From Pseudoalteromonas translucida KMM 520 (lineage in GTDB: Bacteria > Pseudomonadota > Gammaproteobacteria > Enterobacterales > Alteromonadaceae): a stretch of DNA of 32,000 bases. Below the pieces are notes generated by a model. It was not told the DNA's origin. It did no database searches and worked only from the letters and a program-made list of their open reading frames with translations. How positions within the stretch are numbered: position 1 is the stretch's first letter; each line of letters begins with the position of its first letter. The DNA lies in assembly GCF_001465295.1 (NCBI RefSeq), contig NZ_CP011034.1:1740001-1772000 (forward strand), written 5' to 3'. Position numbers and translations under genes: made by a program. Below, piece by piece: positions 6,764 through 29,648 of the stretch.

Positions 6764-7064
6764 ATCGATGTCCTTACGAATTTATTAGAATTAAACCTAT
6801 ACTACATAGCTTGTTCTGAGTTAGCCAAGTGCATTTGCTGTTGAAGTTAGTGATATTTCGGAAATAGGTGGTCACATTTTCATCGTTGTAGATAGTCGCA
6901 CAGATATACCTGAGTTAGTTACTACTCCTGACCAATTTATAGAGACAGAAGTAGTTTTGTTATAAAAATGTCGAAATTTTTAACATACTTTTCCTAATCT
7001 GATAGCAACGTTTTAGAGCAATAGATCTAACTCGCTTTTGTTCAAAAAGAGTTTGTCCGACCGC

Positions 7065-7110
7065 CAGCTTATCGCTCTTTGCCTAAGTACGCCGAGTGCC
7101 ATGAGCAGAC
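7065..7110 (-). repeat. Inverted orphan copy of the box-plus-junction module found in the cassette array
   Basis: The reverse complement reads GTCTGCTCATGGCAC-tcggcgtacttaggcaaa-GAGCGATAAGCTG. Compare 24878-25003 (GTCCGCTCATGGCAC...ggcgtacttcggcaaaGAGCGATAACCGG) and 23617-23663. Confidence 0.65.
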
Positions 7111-7163
7111 AGCCAGGAGCTATAATGTCTGGACTCAAAATTTGACCCCCAATGGCTCACAAC

Positions 7164-8351
7164 TCAACTTTTACAGACATCAACAATGTGATCAATCAAT
7201 AAATTGAGTTTCCTGAAGTCATAACGATCATCAATCGACTTAACTTTCTTAAACTGTTTTGTATAGTGCTCTTTCTCTTCTAAGGCACCGTGATACGTTT
7301 TCATGTCACTCTTATATAAAGACCACCTGACAACAGGTTCCTTGCTCACCTTGTAAGATAAATCTAGAAAACACTCAATAGCGACCGCTTTACCATTTAC
7401 ATCCGCATAATGCCTACCGGTTGGCCCTTCAGTCGCAAAACGGGAAAACTCTTCCAAGTCTGGGAGCTTCATAACCTTTAGATTTTTTGGCGCTTTAATC
7501 TCAGCCGTCTTCTCATACTTCTCAACCCCTTCAGCATCGTTATCAAAGATAAAAAGACATTTGTTTAGCATCCCAATACTCGCCAAGCCTTGAAAAAACT
7601 TATACAAACTACCCGTCCCAGTAAATGGGTAATGCTTTTTCATATCTACATAGGTAAAAAAGTCAGTAACATCAGGCCTAAGGAGCGTCATCGCTCGCTT
7701 AATAATAAATAAATCAGATGACCCTTCCGTTATGATCAAAAATTTATGTTCGTCATCAACGCCAGTATGAAGCTTATCTTTGGTAACCAACCGTCCTTCA
7801 ACTATTTCTTGCGTTCTCCACATAACTTTCACATGTTGATTCTTTGGATTTTCAGCGAGCAGTCGCATATATGCATACGGATGAAGACGGTCTAAAAATA
7901 TAAAAAAATCATCACTGTTTGCGAGTATTGGCTCTTTTGCATTCTCAAAATCATTTTGTTTAAAAACAACCTCAGAGAGATAGTTATAAAACGTTGAACC
8001 TGGGTTTTCCGAAATGCGCTCTAAGTCATCAATATTCATAGCTGATACGACTTTTACAAAATCCTCAGAAGAGACCAACTCCAAAAATGTCTCTTCAAAA
8101 AAATCTAAAATACTCTTCTCATAAATAGTTTGGATATCCTTAAGTTTATAGCCTAACAAATCTAACCTTAACTTTACTTCCCCCAACGTGCGTGAAAAGC
8201 CAGTTTCTTCATGCAATTCATCTTCATACATATGTGTGTTTATCACGCCATAATCAGACTGCATAAACAATTTTGAGTGATTGTTAAAATACTCACCCTT
8301 ACTATAATCGAACTCCAAAGAGCCTACATCTAAAGAAACAGAGGAACCCAC
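7164..8351 (-). CDS. Toprim-domain protein (possible HEPN/Toprim-associated N-terminal domain family)
   Basis: FLIITEGSSDLFIIKRA ... CLFIFDNDAEGVEKYEK supplies the Toprim E(G) and DxD(xxG) signatures. GTG start with GGGAG 8 nt upstream. Confidence 0.7.
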   Translation of the reverse strand: MGSSVSLDVGSLEFDYSKGEYFNNHSKLFMQSDYGVINTHMYEDELHEETGFSRTLGEVKLRLDLLGYKLKDIQTIYEKSILDFFEETFLELVSSEDFVKVVSAMNIDDLERISENPGSTFYNYLSEVVFKQNDFENAKEPILANSDDFFIFLDRLHPYAYMRLLAENPKNQHVKVMWRTQEIVEGRLVTKDKLHTGVDDEHKFLIITEGSSDLFIIKRAMTLLRPDVTDFFTYVDMKKHYPFTGTGSLYKFFQGLASIGMLNKCLFIFDNDAEGVEKYEKTAEIKAPKNLKVMKLPDLEEFSRFATEGPTGRHYADVNGKAVAIECFLDLSYKVSKEPVVRWSLYKSDMKTYHGALEEKEHYTKQFKKVKSIDDRYDFRKLNLLIDHIVDVCKS

Positions 8352-8959: not shown

Positions 8960-9036
8960 TGTAGTAGTACAGTGATTTTGGCCACCCATTAAGAAAGAAA
9001 TGTTATGCTAATAAGCATACAAATTTGGGTGAAAAA

Positions 9037-10217
<1,181 letters not shown>

Positions 10218-10358: not shown

Positions 10359-10921
10359 TAGGCATTACCTTGAGTCAATAATGTAGTAATTGGAAATGTA
10401 CCATCGGCAAGTTCTTCACCTATCTCTTTTAACGTTTCGATAATACCTTGTCGACCTAGGCCTTCTGCTATCGTTCATTAAGTAAAAACTCAATATTAAA
10501 ATAATATTTGCCTGTATGAATTTTTGAATGTGGATAAGCATCTGGGAGGATGTCCATTGGAACATGCTTTTGAAACCGAGGTAAGTAGACTCCATTTGCT
10601 TCATGGTCAATATCGATACCGAACGTCGCTAACCTCAGCCTTAAACGGGCAGCGCGCATATCATTCTAAGACACTATGTGATGAGCCGCTGTATTTTTAG
10701 GTTTATTTCCGCGCCCAGCCTTCGCTATATTTGCTGCTAGCTTTTGAGCATGCTTTTTTATATGCTCCCAGCGTACATGGCGTGAGTAGATTAAGTCATC
10801 AGCCGAGATAATGTATAGAAAACGCATGGGCTTGGGCTTTAGCTAAACTACGGTCATCGGTTACGAGAAATAAATTGTTTTCAATATCTTGAATAGTTAC
10901 TTCATGTATCTCTTGACGCAT
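10358..10921 (-). pseudogene. Decayed AHH-family (HNH/EndoVII superfamily) nuclease toxin gene
   Basis: ATG 10921 follows a GGAG RBS. The first frame stops at 10799-10801. A shifted frame then gives ...KPKNTAAHHIVS, followed by an in-frame TAG (10666-10668), then NDMRAARLRLRLATFGIDIDHEANGVYLP...HSKIHTGKYY. A second shift near 10468 leads to AEGLGRQGIIETLKEIGEELADGTFPITTLLTQGNA*. Confidence 0.65.
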
Positions 10922-12599: not shown

Positions 12600-12619
12600 C
12601 ACTGTACATATAAACAGTG
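12600..12619 (+). promoter_or_regulatory. LexA/SOS box upstream of umuDC
   Basis: tACTGTACATATAAACAGTg has the CTG-N10-CAG spacing of the gammaproteobacterial SOS box. It lies about 13 nt before the umuD ATG. Confidence 0.8.
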
Positions 12620-12631
12620 CTTGAGGTGTGT

Positions 12632-13048
12632 ATGTTCGTTATTCCAATTTTTATAGAAGCAGGTATCACCGGCTTTGAATCTCCTGCTGCAGAATATGTA
12701 GAGCTAGGTATTTCAATCGATGAACTAATCATTAAACACCCGAATGCCACTTTTATTGGTATAGCTTCTGGGCAATCCATGCAAGAAGTAGGAATATTCG
12801 ATGGTGACTTATTAGTCATTGATAGAGCTGAGGATGTAAGTACCGGCGATGTCATTGTTGCAAGCTATAACGGTTCGTTTGTTTGTAAAATCATAGATAA
12901 ATCGCAACGCTTACTTATCTCTGCCTCTAAAGATTATAAGTCTGTTTATATCTCTAATGATGATGACTTTAAGCTCGAAGGTGTCGTTACTGCGAGCATC
13001 CGCCTACACAGAAATAAAGCTGAAGTGAATCGATGTTTGCCCTCGTAG
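12632..13048 (+). CDS. umuD: UmuD, SOS translesion polymerase V accessory subunit (S24 LexA-like peptidase)
   Basis: GFESPAAEYVE...FIGIASGQSMQEVGIFDGDLLVIDRAEDVSTGDVIVASYNGSFVCK is collinear with E. coli UmuD. ATG 12632 with a GAGG RBS is preferred over the track GTG 12617, which lies inside the SOS box. Confidence 0.9.
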   Translation: MFVIPIFIEAGITGFESPAAEYVELGISIDELIIKHPNATFIGIASGQSMQEVGIFDGDLLVIDRAEDVSTGDVIVASYNGSFVCKIIDKSQRLLISASKDYKSVYISNDDDFKLEGVVTASIRLHRNKAEVNRCLPS

Positions 13049-14292
13049 ATGCAGTTGCATTTTATGCCAGTGCGGAGAAGGTGTTTGACCCATCCATTCG
13101 CTTTAAACCCGTTGTTGTTCTAACAAATAACGATGGGTGTATTTGTGCAATATGCCCTATTGCTAGAAAGCTTAATATCCCGAAATTTGAACCTTACTTC
13201 AAAATTAGACCCTATTTAGAGCAGCATAATGTCGTCGTGCGCTCTTCAAATTATGAACTCTATGCTGATTTGAGTGAGAGAATGATGACGGTCATTAATC
13301 GTTTTTGTGATGACCATTATGTTTATAGTATTGATGAGTCATTTTTACGTTTTACTGGTTTTTCTAAAATCATCAATGACTGGGCTGATTACGGACACAC
13401 AATACGGCGAGCGGTATGGCGCGAAACAGGATTGCCTGTTGGTGTAGGCTTTGGCATTACGCCTACGTTAGCTAAAGCTGCCAACCATGCGGCAAAAAAA
13501 CTCTCTGGTTATAACGGAGTTGCTGTTATTAATGATGATATATCACGCCAAGAAATCCTGACGCGTATGGATGTTACCGATGTCTGGGGTATTGGCTCTC
13601 GACTCGGTAGAAAACTTAAGATCATGGGGATTAAAAGTGCATGGGATTTAGCAAACCAGAACCCTAAAGCAATGCGACACATGTTTAGCGTTGTTGTTGA
13701 GAGGACCGTAAGTGAGCTTAACGGCATCGCCTGTTTAAGTTGGGATGAAGTAAAACAGAATAAAAAAGAAATCTACTCAACGAGAAGTTTCGGGGAAAGA
13801 GTAAGTGATTTAAATACATTAAAATCAGCCCTCGTAACACACGCAGCGATTGTTGGCCGCAAGCTAAGAAAACAACAGTCATTAGCAAAACGACTTGTTA
13901 TATTCGCTGCAAGCTCGCCACACGAAGACGCGTATTATAAGAAATCTTTGCTCTATGATTTTCCTATACCTACATCAGATACCAGTGTTATAGCCAATGC
14001 TGTTTCAGATGTTATTGATGATATTTTTAAGGCTAACACGCGCTTTTATCGCTGCGGTATTGGCGCAATAGAGTTAGAAAGTGAGTTATTTCAACAAGCC
14101 GATATGTTCTCTGTAAGTGAGGATAAACCTAAAATGATGGAATGCTTAGATGTAATAAATAAACGCTATGGTGTAGGAACTTTATCTATAGGTAGTGAAA
14201 AGCTAACAAAATCATGGAACATGAAAAGGGCTTTTTTATCGCCCCACTACACAACCCGCTGGTCAGACATTCCTATCATAGATTGTGATTGA
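13033..14292 (+). CDS. umuC: UmuC, Y-family DNA polymerase V catalytic subunit
   Basis: MFALVDAVAFYASAEKVFDPSIRFKPVVVLTNNDGCICA...YSIDESFL is the canonical UmuC N-terminus. It overlaps umuD by 16 nt. Confidence 0.92.
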   Translation: MFALVDAVAFYASAEKVFDPSIRFKPVVVLTNNDGCICAICPIARKLNIPKFEPYFKIRPYLEQHNVVVRSSNYELYADLSERMMTVINRFCDDHYVYSIDESFLRFTGFSKIINDWADYGHTIRRAVWRETGLPVGVGFGITPTLAKAANHAAKKLSGYNGVAVINDDISRQEILTRMDVTDVWGIGSRLGRKLKIMGIKSAWDLANQNPKAMRHMFSVVVERTVSELNGIACLSWDEVKQNKKEIYSTRSFGERVSDLNTLKSALVTHAAIVGRKLRKQQSLAKRLVIFAASSPHEDAYYKKSLLYDFPIPTSDTSVIANAVSDVIDDIFKANTRFYRCGIGAIELESELFQQADMFSVSEDKPKMMECLDVINKRYGVGTLSIGSEKLTKSWNMKRAFLSPHYTTRWSDIPIIDCD

Positions 14293-14741
14293 ATTAGTTA
14301 AGTTAATATTGAATATGTTCCATTCCGACCAATAAAAGCATGAACATTTGTAGTTAAGCTCGGTTGTGGCTTTTTAACAACTTTGAATTTTAAGTCTTTG
14401 TTACCAAACTCATCTAGACTTGGACTAAAAGCAAAATGGACTTCCCAGCTTTCACTAGACACCGGCTTATAATCTTAAAGTACAAAACGGAAGTAAACTT
14501 CCGGCTTGTAAGCTTGTATTGGTATATTCCGAAATTAAACTTCCGTTTCTAGGGCTTTAAAGGTAGTTATCGGTAATATACTTCTTTTTTTGATAGCGTT
14601 AACCTAGATAGCTATATGAACAACTTTTCGGGGTCTCCTTTGAGCGAAAACCGGACACTGAAAAAGTTAAATTTATTCCTACTTCTTTGAGTAGGAGCCT
14701 AATTTTGTCCGATAACATTATTAAACGCCGTTTTGGGGCAA

Positions 14742-14877
14742 AATAACATGCTTAATTCCTAGCTGTTTTAATTACTTGTTTACAAAGGTAATTATTGGTG
14801 AAATTATCAGGGTATGTAATATACGCCGTTTTGGTGTGTTATAAACCACCAAAATGGTGTTCAATAAGCTGTTATGT
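14742..14877 (+). repeat. attC-like site preceding the first cassette ORF
   Basis: The left arm ATAACAtGCTTAaTT pairs with the right arm AATAAGC-TGTTAT. The two unpaired bases are on the left arm, as in canonical attC. It ends in GTTATGT (GTTRRRY-like) 31 nt before the ORF start. Confidence 0.5.
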
Positions 14878-15808: not shown

Positions 15809-15907
15809 CATAGCAAGGCGTTTAAACGGAACAAAAACAGTGGGTTACGTTTCTCTTCGCTACACATTATAACCCACAATTTTTGTCCGCTTAACGCGGC
15901 GTTAGTT
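15809..15907 (+). repeat. attC-like site (family A)
   Basis: Inverted arms GGAACAAAAACAGTGGGTTA / TAACCCACAATTTTTGTCC. It ends in GTTAGTT and is near-identical in layout to 22770-22867. Confidence 0.6.
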
Positions 15908-16195: not shown

Positions 16196-16780
16196 TTGAC
16201 CATAGGAAATGAAGGGGGTAAACCCCCAGCAAATAAAACAGTTCACGTTGAACGTAATGCTGGAAATATCATAATCGGGGATTCACCCGAATATGAGATC
16301 AGCTCGGCTATAAATGAATTGCTAAAGTCATTAGCTAACAAGCCGTTTACGTTTAAGAAAAGCAGAAGACGCCCATCCTCTGAAACAGTTGTGAAGATTA
16401 AATACAATAGTCTTAAAGCTAAAAGTCATATCATAAAGCAATACTTAGATCATTCCTCAAAAGTAGAAGAAGCCTATTCCGAGATAGACTCATTGATAAC
16501 TTTTGGAAAAGATACAATCCTGCAAAATTTAAACGATTTATACTATCTTGCTTTAGACGCTGTTGAAATCGACTATCTAACTTGCGATATAGACATAGCT
16601 AAAATCAGAGAAAATTCAGAGTTCATTTTGGATTTTATTATTCAAAGATTAAAAAACACCGTATTTGAATCAAAAAACACTCCAGCTTACAAAGAGCATG
16701 TTGAATTGGGCGTGAATGTCGTCGTCGCTCATGCTTTTATTGAGTGCATAATTATGGAAAACCCAACTTATGATTCCTAG
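16196..16780 (+). CDS. Putative ABC-three-component (ABC-3C) effector-component protein (C-terminal helical module only, 194 aa)
   Basis: TTG start 8 nt after AAGGA. An operon with the small middle gene and the ABC ATPase, with overlapping stop/start codons. The assignment rests on gene order and size, not on a recognised motif. Confidence 0.5.
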   Translation: MTIGNEGGKPPANKTVHVERNAGNIIIGDSPEYEISSAINELLKSLANKPFTFKKSRRRPSSETVVKIKYNSLKAKSHIIKQYLDHSSKVEEAYSEIDSLITFGKDTILQNLNDLYYLALDAVEIDYLTCDIDIAKIRENSEFILDFIIQRLKNTVFESKNTPAYKEHVELGVNVVVAHAFIECIIMENPTYDS

Positions 16781-16994
16781 AAATGGTTGTGACCCAGAAA
16801 TAAATATTGTAAGTATCGGAGCAAAAATTCTAAAGCAAGTGGCAGAGGAAAATCCGTCCTTGGATGCGATACTCACTGACTGTTCTTCAGATCTAAAAGT
16901 ATCGATTGACCACATTATATTGTCATTAGATTGGTTGTTTGCAATTAAGGCTATTGGGATTAATGGAACAGAGGTTTTTATAAATGAAGCTTGA
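16770..16994 (+). CDS. Putative ABC-3C middle component (74 aa)
   Basis: It overlaps the upstream gene by 11 nt and the downstream ATPase gene by 11 nt. Size and position match the middle component of ABC-3C systems. Confidence 0.55.
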   Translation: MIPRNGCDPEINIVSIGAKILKQVAEENPSLDAILTDCSSDLKVSIDHIILSLDWLFAIKAIGINGTEVFINEA

Positions 16995-18675
16995 TAACCT
17001 TGAAATAAAGATAAATAGCGAAGTAAAAAGATTGGTTAAATTCGAGACAGGCCTTAACCTCATCACAAACAAGCCAAATTCTGGGCGTACAGGAAACAGC
17101 GTCGGAAAATCAACATTATCAAGAGTGGTTGATTTTCTAATGCTAGGAAGCATAGACAATATTTACATCGATGAAGAGTTCAAAAAGCCAAACCTTGAGA
17201 TAGAAGCGCTTTTTAAGAACAACTTTGTAACTGCTTCTCTCAGTTTCTTTGACTTCTCAAACAAAATAAATCAAATTTCTCGAAATCTATGTGTTGGTGG
17301 AGAATCTGAATCTAAATTCTGGGTAAATGGTGAAATTGTTGAAGAAAAGGGATATGAGTCATTTATTCAGGATAAAATCTTTAATATATCTACTAGAAGG
17401 CCTTCTGTTCGAGCTGTAGCGCCTAAATTCATTAGAAATGACAGTCATAGAATGTTGAGTACGACCAAGTTTCTTGATAAACGACAAGGCCCAAAAGATT
17501 ACAGCGAACTTTTTTTATACCTTTTCGGCTTCAACAATACGTCTTTACTTACAGAGAAAAGAGATGCAACGAATCTGGTTAATAGACGAAAAAGAAATTC
17601 CACTTCAATCAATGCTCTAGTGAAAGAGCAAAAGCCAACAAGTGAGATCAAGAAATATAAGGCAGATGCTAAAGAGCTAGAGAACAACCTTTTAACATTC
17701 GAATACTCGTCAGAATATTCTAATCCAATAGAAAGGCTTTCAGAACTACAAGTAAAAGAAGACAGATATACCGAAGAGCTTCTATCAATACAGCGAAAAG
17801 TAGACAATATCAATCATACTATCGAACTATTATCCAAAGACAAAGATGGTTATTTAATCAACGAGCTTAAAGCTATATATAGTTTTTCTGGTGTAGCAAT
17901 TGATGGAGCCTTAAGAGAACTTGAAGACGTTATTTTGTTCCATAGAAATCTCGTTGAAAAAAAGAGGCGCTTTCTTACGATTGACTTGCCTAAATTGGAT
18001 GAGGAATCTGAAGGTCTTCAAGCAGAGCTCAGTTCAATACGGAAAGATAAGTTACAAGTTTTTTCTGATATGAGGTCTAAGGAAAGCTTAGACAATGTGA
18101 CTAAAAATCTGAAACGTCTTGGTGAGCTTAAAGTTGAACTTGGAAAGTTAGAAGGTCTAATGGAGCAGCAGTCCAAGGCAAAATTAGATCAAACTGAAGC
18201 TGAAGCTCAATTGCAGAAAATCCTTGAGGCTATTTCCAAAGAGATTGACTATGTTTATGAGTTTGAGAAAAAATTCAATACACATTTAGGATCTCTTACT
18301 AAAAGTCTTCACGATGAAGAATACAGCATAGACTTAGAATTCAATAAGGATAGTGGTACTTGTTCTATAGAGCTCAATAACTCAGCAACTAATCCTGAGG
18401 GTGGGAAGAAGAAAGCCGAAGTCATTGCTTTTGATTTTGCATATATACATGCCATTAATGAGTTAAAGCTGAATCGACCAAATTTTATATTTCATGACAG
18501 TATTGAGGATATTGACCAAAAACAGATTGAAGATATTTTCAAAGAGGCAAAGAAACTCCCGGGTCAACAGATTTTGTCAATGCTATCAGATAAAATATCA
18601 GAAGAAACTTACAAGGAGATATCCAAAAATGTAATCTTATCTCTTGATGAGGATGAAAAGTTCTTTTGTGTTTAA
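16984..18675 (+). CDS. ABC-type ATPase with coiled-coil insert (DUF2326 / ABC-3C ATPase-like, 563 aa)
   Basis: N-terminal strand plus P-loop (LNLITNKPNSGRTGNSVGKSTL). About 250 aa of heptad-rich coiled coil. Signature-like NPEGGKKKAEVIAFDFAY, then Walker B/D-loop RPNFIFHDSIEDID. Confidence 0.78.
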   Translation: MKLDNLEIKINSEVKRLVKFETGLNLITNKPNSGRTGNSVGKSTLSRVVDFLMLGSIDNIYIDEEFKKPNLEIEALFKNNFVTASLSFFDFSNKINQISRNLCVGGESESKFWVNGEIVEEKGYESFIQDKIFNISTRRPSVRAVAPKFIRNDSHRMLSTTKFLDKRQGPKDYSELFLYLFGFNNTSLLTEKRDATNLVNRRKRNSTSINALVKEQKPTSEIKKYKADAKELENNLLTFEYSSEYSNPIERLSELQVKEDRYTEELLSIQRKVDNINHTIELLSKDKDGYLINELKAIYSFSGVAIDGALRELEDVILFHRNLVEKKRRFLTIDLPKLDEESEGLQAELSSIRKDKLQVFSDMRSKESLDNVTKNLKRLGELKVELGKLEGLMEQQSKAKLDQTEAEAQLQKILEAISKEIDYVYEFEKKFNTHLGSLTKSLHDEEYSIDLEFNKDSGTCSIELNNSATNPEGGKKKAEVIAFDFAYIHAINELKLNRPNFIFHDSIEDIDQKQIEDIFKEAKKLPGQQILSMLSDKISEETYKEISKNVILSLDEDEKFFCV

Positions 18676-18683
18676 ACAAAAAA

Positions 18684-18741
18684 CTAACAAGTCAAATCAC
18701 TCGGACGCAGCGAAGCTGCGCCGGTGTTTGAGGCGTTATGT
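18684..18741 (+). repeat. attC-like site (short, 58 bp)
   Basis: CTAACAAGT-CAAAtCACtCGGaCGCAGC-gaa-GCTGCGCCGGTGTTTG-aggcGTTATGT is a clean stem with three unpaired bases confined to the left arm, with TAAC and GTTRRRY ends. Confidence 0.72.
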
Positions 18742-18764: not shown

Positions 18765-19091
18765 ATGGATAATGATGACGTAAAAATTGTAGAAGCAAAA
18801 ATGGAGTTAGAACGCATTTCTGAGCTTCAAAAGTATAAAGAAGAATTTGATAAGCTTGGTTCAAATGACTGGGGGCTTAAAGACTTTCTTTCTATTATTG
18901 CGCCATTTGGCTTACTTCTACTTGCAAATAGTTTCTTTACAATCGAGAGTGAGTTATTTCAAATAATGTGCGTTATTTTCGTTGCCTCATCTTTTGTTCA
19001 AGGCATGGTTACCGCTGAAAGTAAAAAGACAAACCGCAGAATTGATATACTGCTCAAAATCATCAAACAAGGACAGAGTAAAAACACATAA
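18765..19091 (+). CDS. Cassette ORF: small two-TM membrane protein
   Basis: Track ORF 18738..19091. The ATG at 18738 lies inside the attC core, so a later in-frame ATG (18753 or 18765) is more likely. Hydrophobic helices FLSIIAPFGLLLLANSFFTI and LFQIMCVIFVASSFVQGMV. Confidence 0.5.
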   Translation: MDNDDVKIVEAKMELERISELQKYKEEFDKLGSNDWGLKDFLSIIAPFGLLLLANSFFTIESELFQIMCVIFVASSFVQGMVTAESKKTNRRIDILLKIIKQGQSKNT

Positions 19092-19183
19092 CAACACGCC
19101 CTGAGGTGGACAGCAAGCACTAAAGCTCACTTTCCACCGCAAGTTTAGCCAACAGTCAATTGCCCCTTAGCAAAGCGTTAGGC
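19087..19183 (+). repeat. attC-like site
   Basis: It starts CATAACA (overlapping the stop codon), has the internal stem GGTGGA...TCCACC, and ends in GCGTTAGGC. Confidence 0.5.
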
Positions 19184-19211: not shown

Positions 19212-20903
19212 ATGAGTCAAAAAAAATCAACGCCATCACTTCCAGATCCATTTCCAACGGATAAACTTCGTTTACTTCAGTTCGGAAGTGCTGATGGTCA
19301 TAGAGATAAAGTTGCAGAGCATGCGTTTATAGAAACTTCATCTGTAAAACAATTTTATTTGAATCAACATTCAATAATTGTAGGAGCAATAGGAGCTGGC
19401 AAAAGTACTCTATTTGCCCTATTGAAGAATCATTCAGAAAAATTAGAATCATATAAAGATGATTTGATCGTACCTTTAGAAGAGGCTTTGTCATTTAATG
19501 AACTTGCTGATTTTGTTAAAAATCATTATCCAGATAAAGATGAAAAAACACTTTATCAATTATTATGGAAGTTCAGTATATTATTAAAAATCGCAATTGA
19601 ATTATCAAAGCATGAAGGCTTTCCAAATAACGATTATGAGAAGGCAGTTAACAATTTCTTAGATGATTCAAATAGTTCAGATGCTTATTCAAATATCCTT
19701 AATAAATTTAAAAAACTTATTTCTAATGCAAATGTAAAATTTGAAGCTAAGGTTGGTGACAACCCTATAGCTATAGAAGCAGGGTTGTCTGATAAAGAAC
19801 CAAAGCCCCAAAAGAAAATTAACCTTGAAGAAGTTCAAAGAGCTATATCCGACTCAATAAAAGTTCGTAATTTCAATTGTGCGACTGTGATTATTGATAA
19901 AATAGACAAGTTTATGGCTGGTGCTGAATATAATGTCCAAAGACAGTATATAGGTGCATTACTTGAAGTTGATGATGATCTATCGGCTATTCAAAACATT
20001 AATTTAAAAGTTTTTATAAGAGCAGACCTATTTGAAAGATTAGATTTCGCAGCTCTTGGTTATGACAAAGTCCATGATAACGTAATTAGATTAAAATGGA
20101 GCCACGATGAAACTCTACGTTTTTTAGCAACAAGGATAATGGTTGGATTAATACGAGCGAAGATATGTAGACCAGAAGAGATATTTCAGTCTACAGACTT
20201 AACTGAGTTTGATTTGACTTGGAGAGAAAAGTTATTTCTAAATCCTAGTGTGCCAAATATTGTTAAAAACCTGATTAATAAAAAAGAAAAATCTGAACGC
20301 GTTACAAGTATGTATGGGAAATTTGATAAAGCGATAATCACTAAAGTTTTTCCTCGTTGTGCTATTCACTTCTGCTCAAAAGAAAACAAGCAGTCAGAAT
20401 TAGATATTTTTGATTTTATAAAATCTCATTTTTTAGATGGTAACGGAATATGTACTCCAAGGTATATGTTAATTTTCCTAAAAGAAGTTGTTGAACAAGT
20501 CGCCTCATATTATGACGAAAACCCTGATCAAGTTTCAGAGCTAGTTTTAGTGGAAAAAGATTTTGAGTGGGATTTATTTAAAAAATATTGTGTGTATCAA
20601 GCTTATGTTACAGCGAAAGATATATATATAAAGAACATTGAAACTATAGACTCTACATGGACTAAAAATGTAAATGTCCTTTTGGCAAAAAGAGGTAACA
20701 AAACAAAGTTTGATTATAAATGGATTAGAGCCAACATTCCTGATATTTCAGAAAGTGAAGCAGTAGATTTCTTGTCATTTCTTCAAGTTATTGGTTTTTT
20801 GAAAATTTCAGATGCACATCAAGATATAAAAAAGAGAGGTTATGAGCTACCTATTCTATACAAGCTTTCGAATATGCCTAACAAGCCAATTAAGCGGGAC
20901 TAA
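19212..20903 (+). CDS. Cassette ORF: 563-aa P-loop NTPase of unrecognised family
   Basis: Perfect Walker A GAIGAGKST (IIVGAIGAGKSTLFALL). Walker-B-like ATVIIDKIDKF. A long helical C-terminal half. Confidence 0.75.
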   Translation: MSQKKSTPSLPDPFPTDKLRLLQFGSADGHRDKVAEHAFIETSSVKQFYLNQHSIIVGAIGAGKSTLFALLKNHSEKLESYKDDLIVPLEEALSFNELADFVKNHYPDKDEKTLYQLLWKFSILLKIAIELSKHEGFPNNDYEKAVNNFLDDSNSSDAYSNILNKFKKLISNANVKFEAKVGDNPIAIEAGLSDKEPKPQKKINLEEVQRAISDSIKVRNFNCATVIIDKIDKFMAGAEYNVQRQYIGALLEVDDDLSAIQNINLKVFIRADLFERLDFAALGYDKVHDNVIRLKWSHDETLRFLATRIMVGLIRAKICRPEEIFQSTDLTEFDLTWREKLFLNPSVPNIVKNLINKKEKSERVTSMYGKFDKAIITKVFPRCAIHFCSKENKQSELDIFDFIKSHFLDGNGICTPRYMLIFLKEVVEQVASYYDENPDQVSELVLVEKDFEWDLFKKYCVYQAYVTAKDIYIKNIETIDSTWTKNVNVLLAKRGNKTKFDYKWIRANIPDISESEAVDFLSFLQVIGFLKISDAHQDIKKRGYELPILYKLSNMPNKPIKRD

Positions 20904-20975
20904 AAACAGTTTGCTCGGTTTCGCTTCGCTACACATTTTAGCAAACAATTTTTAGCCCACTATTGGGGCGTTACC
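20877..20975 (+). repeat. attC-like site (family B)
   Basis: CCTAACAAGCC...GGGACTAAAAACAGTTTGCT / AGCAAACAATTTTTAGCCC...GGGGCGTTACC. The left core lies inside the 3' end of the ORF. Confidence 0.6.
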
Positions 20976-20978
20976 ACC

Positions 20979-21947
20979 GTCCGCTCATGGCACGTGTCAG
21001 ACTCTAACTTCGAGTCTGGCTTAGGTTCAAATTTAAGCATCGATCTGTTCTGATACTTCTAACGCATCATCAACTTCTATTCCCAAGTACCTGACTGTGC
21101 TCTCCAGTTTTCTATGGCCAAGTAGAAGCTGACAGGCTCTTAAATTTTTAGTTTTTTTGTAAATTAGTGATGGTTTGGTACGTCTCATAGAATGAGTGCC
21201 ATATTGAGTCTTATCTAACCCAATTGAGGTGACCCAAGAATCAACTATACGTCCATATTGACGGGTTGAAAGGTGTTCAGAGGAATGAATTCGTGACTTA
21301 AACAAGTAATCATAAGAATTGAGAGTAAATTGCTCTATGAGCGCCACAATTGATTTCCTTGTATTTCCAGTAATTTCAAATTGAACAGGCATACCAGTCT
21401 TTTTTTGAACGACTATTGCCCTTGATTGGATTGTTTTACCATGTGCGATGTCATTAACTTTTAGTGAAACTAAATCACACCCTCTTAGTTTGCTATCTAT
21501 GGCTAGGTTAAATAGTGCTAGATCTCTTATTTTATGAAAAAGTTCTAGTCGTATTCGGATAGCCCATATTTGCTGTAATTTTAGAGGTAACTTTTGTCCT
21601 ACAAGCTTATTTTTATTCCAAGGCTCTTTAGGCTGATATATAGTTAACTGGTGCATTAGTTGTACTCCGGTGTTTATGGAGTTTTAAGCTTAGCTCGCTA
21701 CAAAAGAATTCGGGTATGAGCGATAACCAGTCATTGGGGTTCGTTAAATATCGTCGTTAACTGATTGGTCAAACTGTCATTTTCGTTTATATTCATGAAA
21801 ATGAGCGCCGAGCGCATATTGTTCTATTTAACTTTTCTTTAAAGTTTTAGAAAACTTCGTGATAGTAATACCTTAGGTTATTTGTTAAAACTATATAATG
21901 TAGAAAAATGAGCGTAGCGTCGGCAGAAACATGCGCGATGAGCGCAC
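20979..21947 (+). mobile_element. 969-bp element bounded by about 15-bp imperfect inverted repeats and carrying a short tyrosine recombinase; proposed autonomous copy of the R-element family
   Basis: Left end GTCCGCTCATGGCAC (20979-20993). Right end GCGCGATGAGCGCAC (21933-21947), whose reverse complement GTGCGCTCATCGCGC matches 12/15. The interior is the recombinase gene plus the conserved R body (21709-21947). Confidence 0.55.
21033..21656 (-). CDS. Stand-alone catalytic-domain tyrosine recombinase (207 aa, FimB/FimE-sized); not a canonical integron integrase
   Basis: RDLALFNLAIDSKLRGCDLVSL (Arg I), YGTHSMRRTKPSLIY (H-x-x-R), LLGHRKLESTVRYLGIE (His/Tyr nucleophile). It is too short to contain an N-terminal core-binding domain or the IntI-specific insertion. 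Confidence 0.85.
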   Translation of the reverse strand: MHQLTIYQPKEPWNKNKLVGQKLPLKLQQIWAIRIRLELFHKIRDLALFNLAIDSKLRGCDLVSLKVNDIAHGKTIQSRAIVVQKKTGMPVQFEITGNTRKSIVALIEQFTLNSYDYLFKSRIHSSEHLSTRQYGRIVDSWVTSIGLDKTQYGTHSMRRTKPSLIYKKTKNLRACQLLLGHRKLESTVRYLGIEVDDALEVSEQIDA

Positions 21948-22007
21948 TATTAAATTGTTATGCCTTTTTAGTCATCTGCAAGGCTCAATATATAAATAAG
22001 GATATCA

Positions 22008-22775
22008 ATGAATTTTTTACAGTTCGACTTAGGAAACCTCAAACGGGGTGAGATTGTTGAGGTAACACTAACAAGTGGTGCCAATGTAAGATTAATGACT
22101 AGTTCAGAGTTTAATAATTACAAAAACGGAAGAAAGCATAGGTTTATTGGCGGACTAGCTAAAAGATCACCTGTAAACCTTCAAGTAACAAGTTCAGGTC
22201 GATGGTACGTTGCTGTAGATATGCAAGGACTTCGAGGTTCAACAAAAGCATCCGTGAGAACACTTCCAGGAATGTTACCTGAAATACAAGAACGACCATT
22301 ATCAGAAGTGCCTAGCCTAGTTAGGGATAATGTTCCTCCTCCTCTTGAGTCTGGTGGTGAAACTCACGATGTATTCATATCTCATGCATCCGAAGATAAA
22401 GATGATTTAGTTCGCCCTTTGGCAAACGCTTTAATTGCCAAAGGTCTAAATGTTTGGTTTGATGAAATGACACTTAGAATTGGTGATAGTCTAAGACAAA
22501 AAATTGATAAAGGGCTAGCTAATAGCCGTGTAGGTTTAGTGGTTTTATCTCCATCCTTTATTAAAAAAGGTTGGACTAACTACGAACTCGATGGAATTGT
22601 CACAAGAACAGTATCAGGCGAACAGGTTCTTCTGCCTATTTGGCACGATATCACCAAACAACAAGTTGTTGATTTTAGTCCTTCTTTAGCTGACAAAGTC
22701 GCTCGTAGTACAGCAACTCATACAATAGATGAGATCGCTCAGGAGATATATGATCTTCTTGAGTCTAAGGCATAA
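22008..22775 (+). CDS. Cassette ORF: DUF1883-TIR domain protein
   Basis: N-terminal MNFLQFDLGNLKRGEIVEVTLTSGANVRLMTSSEFNNYKNGRKHRFIGGLAK is the DUF1883 pattern. C-terminal DVFISHASEDKDDLVRPLANALIAKGLNVWFDE...VVLSPSFIKKGWTNYELDG is a TIR domain with the conserved Glu. Confidence 0.85.
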   Translation: MNFLQFDLGNLKRGEIVEVTLTSGANVRLMTSSEFNNYKNGRKHRFIGGLAKRSPVNLQVTSSGRWYVAVDMQGLRGSTKASVRTLPGMLPEIQERPLSEVPSLVRDNVPPPLESGGETHDVFISHASEDKDDLVRPLANALIAKGLNVWFDEMTLRIGDSLRQKIDKGLANSRVGLVVLSPSFIKKGWTNYELDGIVTRTVSGEQVLLPIWHDITKQQVVDFSPSLADKVARSTATHTIDEIAQEIYDLLESKA

Positions 22776-22867
22776 CAGGTACTTAAACGCAACTAATACA
22801 GTGGGTTAGGTTTAGCTACACTACACATTATAACCCACAATTTTAGTCCGCTTAGTGCGTCGTTACC
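22770..22867 (+). repeat. attC-like site (family A)
   Basis: GCATAACAGG...ACAGTGGGTTAGG / ATAACCCACAATTTTAGTCC...GTCGTTACC. Confidence 0.6.
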
Positions 22868-22870
22868 ACT

Positions 22871-23134
22871 GTCTGAAATTGGCACTGAGCCGAATTTCGG
22901 CATAGAGCGATAACCAGTCATTGAGATTGGCTAAATATCGTAGTTAATTGATTGGTCAAACTGCTCTTTGCTCATATATTCATAGAAATGAGCAACGTGC
23001 GTATATTATTGCATTTAACTTTACTTAAAAGTTTTAGAAAACTTAATGATAGTAATACCTTAGGTTATTTGCTAAAACTATATAATACGAAAAAATGAGC
23101 GTGGCGTCGGCAGAAATATGCACGATGAGCGCAC
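22871..23134 (+). mobile_element. R element copy 2 (264 bp, no recombinase; left inverted repeat degenerate)
   Basis: Collinear by eye with 21709-21947 and 24983-25221. It abuts the GTTACC of the attC on the left and is followed by tattaaattGTTAGGC on the right. Confidence 0.6.
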
Positions 23135-23163
23135 TATTAAATTGTTAGGCTTCAGGGGTATCA

Positions 23164-23601: not shown

Positions 23602-23672
23602 CAAGGCATTACCAATGTTCGCTCATGGCACTTAGCTGATCTTCGTCAAAGAGCGATAAGCTGTCATTCAGG
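23596..23672 (+). repeat. Collapsed attC (18 bp: GCCTAACAAG/GCATTACC), then a solo left box and junction of the R family
   Basis: Box GTTCGCTCATGGCAC (23617-23631), then ttagctgatcttcgtcaaaGAGCGATAAGCTGTCATTCAGG. Similarity to the R body stops after about 25 nt. Confidence 0.55.
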
Positions 23673-23874
23673 TGAGTCGTCATTAACTTAGTAAGAATAA
23701 GAGAGGATTTTCATCTTTTTTACATGTTTATATAAGCTACAGAAAGAATAATATTTATAGCTGGCAATAGCTTACAGTATTTTCTATTAATATAAATTCA
23801 CAAAATAAGGACGTTTTCGCGCTAAAATAGGGAAAGTGTCCTCTGATAAAGTTGTTATATTCAAGGAGTGATCA

Positions 23875-24789: not shown

Positions 24790-24790
24790 A

Positions 24791-24874
24791 TATAACAAGC
24801 AATCAAGAAGGACTAAAAACAGCTTGCTCGGTTCCGCTTTGCTTCACATTTTAGCCTCTTATTGAGGCGTTACC
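24791..24874 (+). repeat. attC-like site (family B) with a deletion of about 15 nt in the right arm
   Basis: It aligns with 20877-20975 but lacks the AAACAATTTTTAGCC segment. It ends in GGCGTTACC. Confidence 0.5.
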
Positions 24875-24877
24875 AAT

Positions 24878-25221
24878 GTCCGCTCATGGCACAATTGCTA
24901 AGTTAGGCTGTGAGCGAATTTGAGACATTGACCAAAGTGCAAAAATTGCACATTGGTCACCACCTCTAACTCAGAGGCGTACTTCGGCAAAGAGCGATAA
25001 CCGGTCATTGAGATTAGCTAAATATAATAGTTAATTGATTGGTCAAACTGCTCTTTACTCATATATTCATGAAAATGAGCTGCTCGCGCATATTGATCTA
25101 TTTAACTTTACTCAAAAATTTTAGAAAACTTAGTGATAGTAATACCTTAGGTTATTTGTTAAAACTATATAAAGCAGAAAAATGAGCGTTAAGTCGGCAG
25201 AAATATGCGCGATAAGCGGAC
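24878..25221 (+). mobile_element. R element copy 3 (344 bp, no recombinase, with an extra nested segment of about 83 bp)
   Basis: Left GTCCGCTCATGGCAC (24878-24892). Right GCGCGATAAGCGGAC (25207-25221), whose reverse complement GTCCGCTTATCGCGC matches 12/15. The extra segment, about 24893-24975, contains the hairpin 24929-24959. Confidence 0.6.
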
Positions 25222-25274
25222 TATAAAATGTTAGTTTTATATTTGAGTTATTCAGAATTAAAGGTGTCAACTAG

Positions 25275-26919: not shown

Positions 26920-26980
26920 CCTAACAAGCTGCTGCCGACGAGCGGCAGAGTGCAGAGTTACTAATGTCCGCAATTGGCAC
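26919..26980 (+). repeat. Short attC-like site (26919-26961), then a solo left box (26966-26980)
   Basis: GCCTAACAAGCTGCTGCCG-acga-GCGGCAG...AGTTAC, then ctaatGTCCGCAATTGGCAC. Confidence 0.4.
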
Positions 26981-26989
26981 ATATGCGTC

Positions 26990-27325
26990 TTATGTATCTT
27001 CCATAATATCTTTAAGTGCTATGCGTTTTAACTGCGTGCCATCGCGGTACCCTTTTGCTAACAAATCGTCTAATACAGCACCAGTGTAGAATGTGTAACC
27101 ATTCTCTTCACCAACGGGGAGCTCATATGTAGAGCCTGATATTTGAGGCCAAGTCCAGTAATTCCCGCACGATGATAATTTAGGTAGAACCATTGAACCT
27201 GAACTAACTCTCCACTCATCATCATTTCGCCATGAACAAAACAATACATAACATGGTTTATCATCAACTGTTTGAAACGTTAAAACAACCCACCCCTCTG
27301 GCCTATGTTTTATATTCAATTTCAT
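26990..27325 (-). CDS. Hypothetical 111-aa protein, reverse-oriented relative to the cassette array
   Basis: Track ORF; no family recognised. Confidence 0.5.
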   Translation of the reverse strand: MKLNIKHRPEGWVVLTFQTVDDKPCYVLFCSWRNDDEWRVSSGSMVLPKLSSCGNYWTWPQISGSTYELPVGEENGYTFYTGAVLDDLLAKGYRDGTQLKRIALKDIMEDT

Positions 27326-28323
27326 CCCTTTTTACATTAAAATTAAATTTAGCATTCATATTAATCCTAACCCAATAAATCAAAATATTAGTTTTCCTAG
27401 AAAATGAGTGAAAGAGTCATTAAATATTTTTGATACCTTATCGATAGAAACAAAGTCTGTTGATCGATATTTAAAAGGCACAAGTGGCGTTAAGCACCTT
27501 ATTACAATTGGTACTACTGCAGGTCAATTTGACGATATCGAGCAGATGTTTTGTAAAAAAATCCGGCCCAGTGATTCCTAGAACGAAGAGCTGGATTGAC
27601 GATGTAATTAGGTAATACAACAATTGGATTATCACCTTTAACAGTTGGTAAGTACAAAAAGTTATTTTACCATATTTACCTAGCGTAATATCACAACAAA
27701 GGCAATGGATTGTCAAAGCTCATATAAGCTTTATATGAAAAGTTTAAGAAATCTGCAAACTAAGTTATCAACCCATCTCAACACTTAACTAAAGAACAAT
27801 TAGATTTACATGCAAGAGAAAAAAAAGGTCTAGTCGTTCAGCGGTAGAGCATAGGACTAGCATAAACGTGATAGAGCAAATATTGATATATTCCAGTCGT
27901 AAGCTAAATATTGTCCCAGCTATAAATATAGAAGCTGGCGTCCGATTAGTGGTGAATGCAACACTACTGAGCATTTCAGAGCAATTATTGGCTAAATTCA
28001 ATCATTTTTTGATTTCAGCGGCAGCTTAAAAAATTTTTTGAAGTAGAAACATAAAGTACATGTACCATATAGTTAGGAATGAATAAAAACTCCATAAAAT
28101 TCAGCTGGCCATCATGAAAAATTAAGTGTACTTACTCTTTTGCCAATATTAGTTAAATAGGATTTGTATTAGGCTATTCAGTATAACTAACTATAACTAG
28201 ATGTATTTAAAGCCTGCTCTTTGCTGATTATTTAGTGTATTTTGCGTTTTTAAGTAAACTCATTACGGCTACTTTGCGCTAATACAAATACATAACTAAT
28301 GAACGATTACTCTACTTACTAAG

Positions 28324-28415
28324 CAGATTAAACAGATTAAACAGATTAAACAGATTAAACAGATTAAACAGATTAAACAGATTAAACAGATTAAACAGAT
28401 TAAACAGATTAAACA
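28324..28415. repeat. Perfect tandem repeat, 10 copies of the 9-mer CAGATTAAA plus a partial CA
   Basis: Counted directly: units start at 28324, 28333, ... 28405. Confidence 0.95.
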
Positions 28416-29648
28416 AGAATGCCATTACTCACATAATTCTATCAAGCAAGTTTTTCATTAAAGCATGCATTTGTATAAAGTAATCCTGCTAATAATTTAG
28501 CTGTTAAAGCTTTCCTTGCTTGTTTGCTGCGCACCTATTTGTAACTAACCAACACGTAAGTATGTTGTTATGCCTTTACTATATTTTCAATTCAGAAGAA
28601 CTTAAGTTTAGCTCTATTACTTGTATAGCTTATTATTCTCTTTGTATATATACACTTATATATTACGTTATTCTTGCAACTACTATCTAACGTAATAAAT
28701 CAGAGCTCTTACAGCATTTAACTTCTTTTTGGCAATGCTCTAATTACGAGTTTAGCTTAGCTAATATCACCTAACGTAATAAATAAACCAGAATTCAGCT
28801 ATTTACTAAATATTGCTTATCATCTTAATATAGTTAGTAGCCTTACTTAACTATAATTTTAACTAAGTGATTATTAACGCCTATAAATAAGCTTCAGTAT
28901 TAAACCTAGTTAATCGCGTTATTCTATCTATTATTTCAATTCTAACAACTAAGCTAACTAACATTATCTATTTCTATGCCAGCTTCTTTGCCGTTATACA
29001 TGAGCAACTGCGCGTATATAATATTTACATTGATATGCCAGATGCTAATACTCTAGTTATCATCAGTTGTAATAGTTTATTATAAAGAAGCTCTGGTTTA
29101 TCACTGTTAAACACATGGGTTTTACCTGTATTTACATAGCTAGTTTTACAAAATCACCGCTATTAACAGTAATAAACCAGCTAGTTTAGTTCGTTTTATA
29201 AGCAGGTGCTTTAAATAGCCTATTATGTAGGGTTTTAATTTTCAGTTTTAGTCATATTTAGTTTAATTATTAGTCGCTTAAATTATGTTAAATTGAGCTG
29301 TAATTATGTTTATCACAGTAATGCGCTTGGTTTTTAACTAAAACTCCCTGCTGATAGTGGTTTTAACTATGAAATTCTAAGTTGTTGAAGGACAGTTGGT
29401 ATAAAGCAGAGTAATGGAAAGCAGGTTTCCATAATGTTTGATGGCTATTTATAAGTGTGACTTTTTAAGTATAATTTTTAAGTGTATTTTAACTTAGGCT
29501 AGTTTTAAATATTGAAGTGCCCTGCACTGTATATAGTTATTGTTGCGTAATAATGTAATTAAATATGATGGTTAATCCGATACTATTCGCAGTACACTTG
29601 CCATTAACCTAACGCGTTAAATTAACAGCAAGTAGAACCACAGGTGAT

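Follow-up and report, generated by a model that had tools for sequence, protein, structure and literature searches.

Organization of the locus

A 32,000-nt stretch of the Pseudoalteromonas translucida KMM 520 genome (NCBI RefSeq assembly GCF_001465295.1, contig NZ_CP011034.1, positions 1,740,001 to 1,772,000 of the forward strand) carries a gene for a short tyrosine recombinase (21033-21656, minus strand) inside an integron-type cassette array. The whole stretch is referred to here as the window, and positions are counted from its first letter. The array began near 14.6 kb, on the downstream side of umuDC (12617-14292), and ended near 27.0 kb; the window contained no intI gene. The original prediction, made from the sequence alone, had described positions 20979-21947 as an element with inverted-repeat ends, inserted at the GTT core of an attC site and carrying the recombinase gene together with a conserved body (R) of about 240 bp. 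Comparison with related loci (numbered L001 onward) confirmed this observation and partly supported its interpretation; the mechanism proposed below rests on such comparative evidence. We regard it as fairly probable that the recombinase belongs to a system that shuffles modules at two classes of short sites, termed D and U, and that the modules in this array are integron platforms without intI.

A canonical attC ended each cassette, for example at 15811-15904, 18685-18738, 19088-19172, 20879-20973, 22775-22865, and 24790-24872. The attC that precedes the recombinase gene (20879-20973, plus strand; R'' TAAC ... R' GTTA), recognized from repeat families, shared 80% identity with an attC of L149, a canonical Pseudoalteromonas integron, and has its crossover point G|TT at 20970|20971. 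The left box of the predicted element, GTCCGCTCATGGCAC (20979-20993), starts 3 nt after the GTTACC at the end of this attC (20970-20975), as had been stated. The right box, GCGCGATGAGCGCAC (21933-21947; reverse complement GTGCGCTCATCGCGC), matched the left box in inverted orientation at 12 of 15 positions with an identical central TCAT, again as predicted, and was followed by TATTAAATTG|TTATGC (21948-21963).

The array head (14627-14871, plus strand) consisted of a U-type site, GAGCG-AAAA-CCGGAC (14642-14656), and a body designated R5, which ended in AAGCTG|TTA before the first cassette. R body 1 (21709-21957, plus strand), an attI-like platform with four sites in the same orientation, preceded a cassette (21958-22862, plus strand) made up of an open reading frame (ORF) for a DUF1883 and TIR (ThsB-like) protein (22008-22775) and its attC (22775-22865). 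The gene-less unit 2 (22863-23144, plus strand) contained TTACCACT, a D site (22867-22894) and a U site (22896-22923) arranged head to head with a common GCCGAA/TTCGGC, and R body 2, ending in AAATTG. An R4-type unit (23610-23854, plus strand) comprised TTACCAAT, a D site (23613-23631), a U site (23651-23669), and a body ending in AAAGTTG|TTA; bodies of this type also occurred after the recombinase module of L002 and were found in L104, L108, and L136. Unit 3 (24870-25230, plus strand) comprised TTACCAAT, a D site (24874-24892), a U site (24986-25010), and R body 3 ending in AAAATG|TTA, with an extra U-type site (24912-24930) inside its 95-nt linker. A terminal D site (26962-26980, plus strand), which includes a solo box (26966-26980), lay directly after the last attC and was followed by the chromosomal flank with an ORF (26990-27325); this ORF was also present beyond an inverted copy of the flank at the far end of the corresponding array of L117 and L126. 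The R4-type body (23651-23854), the R5 head, the extra U-type site, the solo box and an inverted D-U pair outside the array (7040-7114) had not been part of the original prediction.

In Alteromonadales loci, a D site typically followed the last attC (...GCG|TTACCAAT-GTCCGC-N4-GGCAC), and after it came either a U site with the next body or non-array DNA. By the logic of integrons, what follows the last attC on the right was at first the right-hand part of attI. In its simplest form, a unit therefore runs from a U site through an attI-like body, G|TT, and any cassettes to ACCAAT and a D site. The window contained five such units in tandem, with 4, 1, 1, 1, and 2 cassettes, and the recombinase module was located between the first D site and the second U site. 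The coordinates of the predicted element thus correspond to a junction: the end of unit 1 (D), the recombinase module, and the head of unit 2 (U and attI-like body).

The recombinase family and the limits of its module

The recombinase gene was identified as an intact ORF by Pfam, XerD alignment, and homologue search, and the predicted protein of 207 aa contains the catalytic domain only (CAT-only), as originally described. Its sole Pfam domain was PF00589 (residues 41-191), and R58, H155, R158, H181, and Y190 aligned with R148, H244, R247, H270, and Y279 of XerD. No SAM-like N-terminal domain was found in the 207 aa, in which PF00589 stood alone, and BLASTP against the Pseudoalteromonas IntI P0215 gave an alignment limited to 64 aa (22% identity) around box II; PF13495 and PF00589 occurred together in the 320-327-aa IntI proteins of L001, L149, and L150. 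Scores against Xer models were 47.7 bits (TIGR02224, cut-off 335) and 31.1 bits (TIGR02225, cut-off 330). Membership of a known invertase system, which the original prediction had named as a check, was not indicated by the FimB-type model NF007371, which gave 20.4 bits against a cut-off of 222.

At least 8000 candidate homologues were scored, every one with E <= 0.001. The recombinase was 99.5-100% identical in three other Pseudoalteromonas genomes (P. arctica, sp. A601, and sp. AOP31-A2-14); homologues with 65-70% identity occurred in Pseudomonas, Massilia, Methylomonas, and Enterobacterales, and homologues with at least 60% identity were present on about 200 plasmids. As one part of the overall explanation that we favour, the ORF probably encodes a member of a very large, uncharacterised proteobacterial family of CAT-only tyrosine recombinases. 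A paralogue in L117 (59-649), 5 kb from an inverted mini-array, was only 50% identical, and one genome may therefore carry more than one family member.

The recombinase gene travelled in a module of about 0.7 kb (0.7-0.75 kb), with one U site on its 5' side and one inverted D site on its 3' side. When the window was compared with L002-L004, loci of three Pseudoalteromonas genomes in which the gene was 98-100% identical, homology was confined to 20992-21735, a span that takes in the gene with a hairpin on its 3' side and some 75 nt of leader on its 5' side. The hairpin, CAGACTC-N7-GAGTCTG (20998-21018, minus strand), lies just 3' of the stop codon, was kept in L002-L004, and is likely a terminator; part of it coincides with the second arm of the D site. 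L084, L087, and E. coli had comparable hairpins. The leader or promoter region (21657-21708, minus strand) travels with the gene: it was 98% identical in L002-L004 up to TATGAGCGAT and remained alone in L121. Past TATGAGCGAT, the window and L003 continued with an R1-type body, L002 with an R4-type body, and L004 with unrelated DNA. These near-identical modules, with different R bodies or none, argue against the unit from box to R body that had been proposed. The breakpoint among L002, L003, L004, and the window lay in the 4-nt spacer of the U site S1. On the 3' side, the box differed among these loci in its outer arm and 4-nt spacer, and homology with L002-L004 and L094 began at the GGCAC/spacer of the D site. 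The breakpoints sit in 4-nt spacers.

Narrow limits of homology were general. In an all-against-all comparison of 80 genome loci, homology beyond the gene ended after 60-90 nt on the upstream side and after 40-60 nt on the downstream side, even between loci with 88-100% identity. No partner gene was conserved among the 80 loci, no transposase was linked, and IntI was encoded within 10 kb of a family member only in L001, with weaker Xer-like matches elsewhere. The common block in E. coli measured about 700 bp (query 136-837) and was present in 994 of 5426 complete genomes. Most family members were outside cassette arrays, including the 87%-identical Paraglaciecola homologues and those of E. coli and Pseudomonas; in addition, L094 carried the same D, recombinase and R block after an RND-pump gene and not at an attC. 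These contexts do not fit the attC targeting that had been predicted. L094 and L003 matched the window from the D centre to the R end at 95% and 91%, respectively.

In E. coli Nissle 1917 (L154), the family member WP_001305361 lies in a CP4-like island beside a gene for a TonB-dependent receptor. An insertion sequence (IS) of the IS1182 family with a 480-aa DDE transposase was found directly after the GGCAC of two D sites of L004, at 6520(+) and 12385(-). Insertion sequences of this family were also present beside the recombinase on the P. aeruginosa plasmid pPUV-7 (L083, 3407-4777) and in six of the 80 genome loci, and they may target D sites.

Architecture and distribution of D and U sites

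The module ends belong to sites of about 28-32 bp. Their strong arm, (C)AATGTCCGC, is separated by a 4-nt spacer from a pentamer, and 3 nt further on comes a second, weaker arm, GCGGAC or GCCGAA. Expressed as a consensus, the layout is the arm CAATGTCCGC, N4, the pentamer GGCAC ("D") or CGCTC ("U"), N3, and the second arm. On the plus strand, the window module ends in GTCCGC-TCAT-GGCAC on its 3' side and GAGCG-ATAA-CCAGTC on its 5' side. The D-type site CACC-GTCCGC-TCAT-GGCAC-GTG-TCAGAC (20975-21002, plus strand) consists of the left box with a second arm and forms the 3' boundary of the module. The U-type site S1 (21709-21736, minus strand; plus-strand reading TTCGGG-TAT-GAGCG-ATAA-CCAGTC-ATTG) is both the 5' boundary and the first site of R body 1, which further contained S2 (21801-21817), S3 (21908-21924), and S4 (21931-21951, the right box). 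The stretch from box through linker to R start in Pseudoalteromonas proved to be two complete sites head to head with common weak arms GCCGAA/TTCGGC.

The same layout recurred in Pseudomonas, E. coli, and Paraglaciecola, mostly outside integrons, and a D-type site was also located 3' of the gene in these three groups. Whole sites were clearest in the compact E. coli copies, for example CAATGTCTGC-TCCT-GGCAC-AGA-GCGGACTGTC, and the E. coli gene was flanked by TAATGTCTGC-AATT-CGCTC upstream and GTGCC-AACA-GCGGACATTA downstream. The best-kept Pseudomonas copies (L048 and L049) had near-perfect inverted repeats of 22-25 nt, TGTCCGCTTCTGGCCGGTTAGCGAC ... GTCGCTAACCGGCCAGAAGCGGCC. Both sites were present in the Paraglaciecola-type metagenomic locus L001; L084 had a recognisable 3' box and L087 partial boxes only. 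No D or U sites were detected in the canonical Pseudoalteromonas integrons L149-L151.

Successive sites alternated in orientation. In the window they were found at 14660(-), 20975(+), 21736(-), 22867(+), 22923(-), and onward. In Nissle 1917, four full sites at 4412, 6598, 7601, and 8680 alternated between D and U around four small modules, with orientations 4412(-), about 5890(+), 6598(-), 7601(+), and 8680(-), the site near 5890 being a degenerate U read by eye outside the scan. The inverted D-U pair at 7040-7114 (minus strand), in which 25 nt are 96% complementary to 24976-25000, indicates that the site system reaches beyond the cassette array.

The heptamer on which the original prediction drew is indeed repeated. 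ATGAGCG occurred 14 times in the window against 2.5 +/- 1.6 expected, a number reached by none of 100 shuffles, and GTCCGCNNNNGGCAC (at most two mismatches) occurred seven times against 1.8 expected. The repeats are thus non-random. The element contains five plus-strand copies (21337, 21716, 21801, 21908, and 21938), of which 21337, in the coding region, is probably due to chance, and one on the minus strand (20982). TGAGCG was rejected as a family-wide motif by hexamer counts around distant homologues; the GTCCGC arm is family-wide.

R bodies and cassette junctions

The R family, 256 nt long, was represented in the window by three copies with 82-86% identity (21700-21955, 22887-23142, and 24974-25229). 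The shorter gene-less copies that had been noticed are real: the sites do recur without the gene. A pattern scan of metagenomes gave 58 contigs, and a profile search then gave 69 R copies across all loci. The arms of the R sites were conserved and the 4-nt spacers of S1-S3 varied among 55 distinct copies. Box and R did not behave as one element: R was found without the left box in 36 of 53 distinct left contexts (the classifier undercounts boxes), and boxes occurred without R.

The right boundary of R was sharp (...GCGCGATGAGCGCACTATTAAATTG|TTA). Among 61 distinct right flanks, 55 started with TT and 49 with TTA. Past the junction, sequences were unrelated, each with a ribosome-binding site and a different ORF, and a canonical attC then followed the ORFs. 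A 5' cassette end complementary to the cassette's own R'' is the hallmark of cassettes circularised and inserted by IntI. In 29 of 51 cases, the first 7 nt after R read as an exact reverse complement of the R'' box in the cassette's own attC, beside the stop codon of the ORF; among mismatched pairs the share was 1.7%. This complementarity was used because attC detectors based on arm alignment or constrained folding energy failed to discriminate. The cassette at 21958-22862 is an example, its start TTATGCC being complementary to its own R'' GGCATAA. In the canonical Pseudoalteromonas integrons (intI P0215 and P0219), attI ends in GACAAAATTG|TTA, and the terminal AAATTG|TTA is common to R bodies and canonical attI; the R5 body of the window aligned with the canonical attI region over several blocks. 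Because of the sharp junction, the R'' complementarity, the attC after the ORFs, and the likeness to canonical attI, R is read as an attI-like region without intI, and on this sequence evidence R bodies are attI-like heads of cassette arrays. In the window, the attI-like core TATTAAATTG|TTA (21948-21960, plus strand) has its cassette junction between 21957 and 21958. A cassette indel of the ordinary kind was visible in R-headed arrays.

The GTTA cores that bracket the element are present, as the original prediction had noted. They are integron crossover points and not target duplications of the recombinase, because R ends like attI and attC cassettes follow. The segment from box to R did not qualify as a gene cassette, no TGGTAAC-type R'' matching its TTACCA start being found, and R was rejected as a giant attC after single-strand folds of both strands of 22860-23155 proved unremarkable (z = -1.7 and -1.8) with unpaired ends.

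No intI gene adjoined the R bodies of the metagenome loci; the 277-aa matches in L108 and L132 belong to an IS91-like insertion. This element of 2.3 kb, which encodes the 277-aa tyrosine recombinase and a zinc-finger transposase, was found at the R/cassette junction AAATTGTT|GAAC in five contigs (L108, 2518-4826, compared with L098 and L146; also L132, L134, L137, and L142).

Rearrangements at D and U sites

E. coli provided a comparison of a locus with and without a module. Two direct D sites of strain TUM2330 enclose a module of 1,338 bp; in Nissle 1917, where this module is missing, there is one hybrid site, composed of the left side of TUM2330 site S1, the common 17-bp core CGCTCTGTGCCAGGAGC, and the right side of site S2. 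The exact hybrid site left where the module is absent makes it probable that insertion and excision take place at these sites. Both arrangements occurred in several genomes. The 2.2-kb block common to TUM2330 and Nissle 1917 stopped precisely at the D site on the 3' side of the recombinase gene, and the cargo past this site was an ETEC_3214-family gene in one strain and a dynamin-family gene in the other. The E. coli places listed with both flanks were all occupied by the recombinase module itself (span 2500 nt; one was longer, with IS1), and no empty site for it was found among them. The empty and occupied sites sought by the original prediction were found for a neighbouring module in E. coli; no clean case at the unit level was found in Pseudoalteromonas.

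Inversions were visible in related loci. In marine contigs, a segment of about 120 nt between inverted U sites occurred in both orientations relative to the adjacent R (L107 vs. L132, L129, and L138): L107 2785-2915 was colinear with the reverse complement of L132 3186-3312, and the R body was unmoved. In L117, a two-cassette mini-array was inverted between inverted U sites. At the array head, L117 and L126 matched the umuC-side flank of the window up to 14661 and continued with an R1-type body, and the R5 body recurred in L137, L112, L101, and L002 from 14632 onwards, which places the switch inside the U site. Most often, polymorphism took the form of unrelated DNA exchanged, inserted, or deleted at the sites, and not of one fixed segment that flips. 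Direct duplications flanking the modules were absent from the L002-L004, Pseudomonas, and E. coli comparisons. As judged from aligned sequences, the indel, the cargo switch, the inversions, and the array-head switch are signatures of site-specific exchange.

Upstream of R, L111 (reverse complement, about 470-860) carried two tandem units of about 150 nt, each with a U-like site ATGAGCG-AGAA-ATAGTT and a GTCTGAAGTCAAG hairpin, and L124 carried none. This difference may reflect a U x U event, although not a clean one.

Proposed mechanism and alternatives

The observations are best accounted for, in our view, by module shuffling at D and U sites. The 207-aa recombinase would act on these sites as its cognate site of about 28-32 bp and would pair like with like, so that direct repeats would lead to excision or integration of a module and inverted repeats to inversion of the segment between them. 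The two pentamer classes may not cross-react, in which case a module flanked by one of each would be stabilised. Gene-less copies of the sites delimit neighbouring modules, usually with D and U alternating in opposite orientation. Each platform consists of a U site, an attI-like body of about 240 bp with three further sites, attC cassettes, TTACCAAT, and a D site, and an IntI encoded elsewhere would insert attC cassettes at the terminal G|TT of the attI-like body. We infer the catalytic role of the 207-aa protein from the constant linkage between gene and sites; the pentamer specificity and the role of the inner R sites are likewise conjectural. Two parts of the original prediction are close to this account: its alternative of an unconventional cassette-mobilising recombinase, and its distinction between gene-carrying and gene-less versions, which both exist. 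The attC targeting and the unit from box to R that it attached to an autonomous element with derivatives did not stand.

Several points weigh against module shuffling. The link between gene and sites rests on co-occurrence, and binding and cutting by the recombinase are putative. The 1,338-bp indel could in principle be explained by short-homology recombination on the 17-bp repeat. Within the Pseudoalteromonas and Alteromonadales loci, no clean unit-level presence/absence was found, only insertion sequences, one attC cassette and one messy U-site case; nor was an empty platform found (R joined directly to TTACCAAT-D; R-GTTACCAAT-D). The D and U spacers differ between copies, which for a classical tyrosine recombinase limits the pairs that can recombine. 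An R body adjoined the recombinase gene in only three of about 60 cases (the window, L003, and L094), and R could work without the gene. In addition, the site matrix was trained in part on sites that it reports, and the collection of R copies by a sequence pattern inflates conservation around that pattern.

The autonomous element of the original prediction would run from left box to right box, insert at the attC GTT core and give rise to gene-less derivatives resembling miniature inverted-repeat transposable elements (MITEs), with circles in which the right box is joined to the left (right inverted repeat-TATTAAATTGTTACCACC-left inverted repeat). Its boxes match at 12 of 15 positions and have the same TCAT spacer, every copy within the array meets G|TT at both ends, most Alteromonadales D sites directly follow an attC, and the match of L094 and L003 extends all the way from the D centre to where R ends. 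We nevertheless consider it unlikely: R bodies mostly lack a left box and many D sites lack R, L002 and L004 combine the identical gene module with another R body or none, the L094 block is not at an attC and homologues elsewhere are outside integrons, and the cassettes after the right junction bear the IntI signature of complementarity to their own R'' behind an R that ends like canonical attI. A phase switch of the fimS kind, with an R promoter segment flipped between the boxes by a FimB/E-like invertase to turn the downstream cassette on and off, would suit the size and domain content of the recombinase, the inverted boxes around an AT-rich segment directly upstream of ORFs, the inversions at U sites in related loci, and a weak sigma-70-like match, TGGTCA-16-TATATT, that faces the cassette in all three copies. 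It is quite improbable, given that none of 61 distinct R copies was inverted relative to the downstream cassette, of the three window copies a single one has matching box spacers, the FimB-type score is some 20 bits against 222, and promoter-like matches are no commoner than in shuffles (13 vs. 14.8).

A resolution system, in which R with its four tandem sites would be of the res or internal recombination site (IRS) type and the recombinase a TnpI-like resolvase of duplications or cointegrates, draws on the resemblance to the Tn4430 IRS, where a recombinase gene adjoins inverted motifs that are spaced 4 bp apart and accompanied by accessory motifs in tandem (PMC2847244). The absence of a Tn3-type transposase, the numerous and chromosomal copies, the two flanking sites without R that make up the family module elsewhere, and the E. 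coli indel, which is a gain or loss of unique cargo and not a resolved duplication, leave this reading a low probability. Very improbable is a structured RNA (leader or small RNA) or small-protein gene in R with incidental repeats. The strong conservation of R speaks for it, as does the constant position of R 10-80 nt ahead of an ORF of like orientation, but R had no Rfam match, its folds were unremarkable by the z values given above, none of 21 predicted pairs showed a compensatory change in 31 copies, and inspection by eye, with no formal scan, revealed no ORF conserved between R copies.

Module shuffling at D and U sites may extend well beyond this array. More tentatively, and with somewhat less than even confidence, we propose that the family constitutes a widespread, integron-independent cassette system, in which a CAT-only recombinase with two site classes that do not cross-react would perform a natural form of recombinase-mediated cassette exchange on largely defence-type cargo, with whole gene modules inserted, excised, inverted, and swapped. 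In Pseudoalteromonas, the system would have captured intI-less attI platforms, giving a hierarchy of two levels, with IntI moving single cassettes and the small recombinase moving whole platforms. The cargo of the window was defence-like, with the DUF1883+TIR/ThsB-like protein, an ABC-3C component, and two PADLOC candidate families. A literature search of partial coverage found no description of the recombinase family or of D/U sites, which leaves an earlier description possible, and the searched passages of a 2021 classification of tyrosine recombinases did not single out CAT-only enzymes of this kind; the system is apparently undescribed, as the original prediction had said of the element type.

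If correct, this account would add a third natural module-exchange system to integrons and Xer/pdif modules. A very small enzyme (about 200 aa, with no core-binding domain) acting on short double-stranded sites would be attractive for studies of mechanism and as a compact tool for genome engineering. The family is common and occurs among defence-type cargo, so its activity could account for some of the fast turnover that defence islands undergo. Clusters of attC sites without an integrase are known as CALINs. Tandem intI-less attI-like platforms, possibly each with its own promoter, would change how silent arrays and CALINs are read, and the platforms would offer a route for joint movement of cassette blocks.

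Other features of the window

Two cassettes are candidate defence systems. The multi-gene cassette at 16196-18675 encodes a protein with an ABC-3C CTD10 domain and a PDC-M68B-like protein of 563 aa, and that at 19212-20903 encodes a second 563-aa protein, which matched PDC-M28C. The inverted D-U pair at 7040-7114 lies upstream, on the minus strand, of a leader of about 290 nt and a 1086-aa ORF (3503-6763) without a family match; a gene for a HEPN/Toprim-N protein (7164-8351) adjoins the pair, and an IS3-family transposase (two ORFs, 9025-10217) lies between it and the endonuclease I and umuDC genes. Two short hairpin elements, CGTTAACTCGTTTTGGGGCAGAAACGAGTTA and GGGGTCAAATCTTGACTYCAGACATTA, recurred right beside D sites without an attC (L129 4225-4275, L132 3222-3255, L107 2845-2890, window 7115-7150, and L003 about 10700-10740). 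The 9-mer TAAACAGAT is repeated in tandem about 11 times at 28302-28436, between genes past the end of the array.

Comparison with known recombination systems

The locus resembles an integron in its canonical attC array and in the position of R, which ends in the genus-typical AAATTG|TTA and receives cassettes at G|TT as attI does. Here, a divergent tyrosine recombinase gene adjoins the attI-like body and mimics the intI-attI arrangement, but the majority of family members occur elsewhere than in arrays. This recombinase is not an IntI, being 207 aa long instead of 320 and without the SAM-like N-terminal domain, and at least five attI-like bodies stand in tandem in one array, none of them beside intI.

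In Tn4430, the IRS beside the tnpI gene is built of inverted motifs with a 4-bp spacer and extra tandem motif copies (PMC2847244). The present locus shares the position of a recombinase gene beside inverted motifs with a 4-bp spacer and tandem copies. TnpI proteins have 284-306 aa with a core-binding domain and resolve cointegrates of Tn3-family elements. The TnpI motif of Tn5401, ATGTCCRCTAAY, presumably resembles ATGTCCGCTCAT of this system. Unlike TnpI elements, the locus has no transposase, and its sites are dispersed as module boundaries. FimB, FimE, and Rci are comparable in that FimB/E are CAT-only proteins of about 200 aa and inversions between inverted sites were seen here, but membership by sequence fails. 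Inverted ends are shared with insertion sequences and MITEs, whereas the only gene here is that of a tyrosine recombinase and no flanking direct duplication occurs.

In its presumed way of working, the system is closest to the pdif modules of Acinetobacter. Discrete gene modules between short recombination sites are described there on plasmids in different contexts (PMC7399989). The likeness concerns modules bounded by alternately oriented two-armed sites and is one of operation, not of membership: pdif sites are dif-like (11-6-11) and served by the host XerC/XerD, whereas the sites described here are unrelated, have a 12-nt centre with a pentamer, and would be served by a dedicated recombinase of about 200 aa. 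The pdif sites of modules alternate in orientation, and this logic is matched by the order D(-), U(+), D(-), U(+), D(-) in Nissle 1917 and by U, D, U, D in the window.

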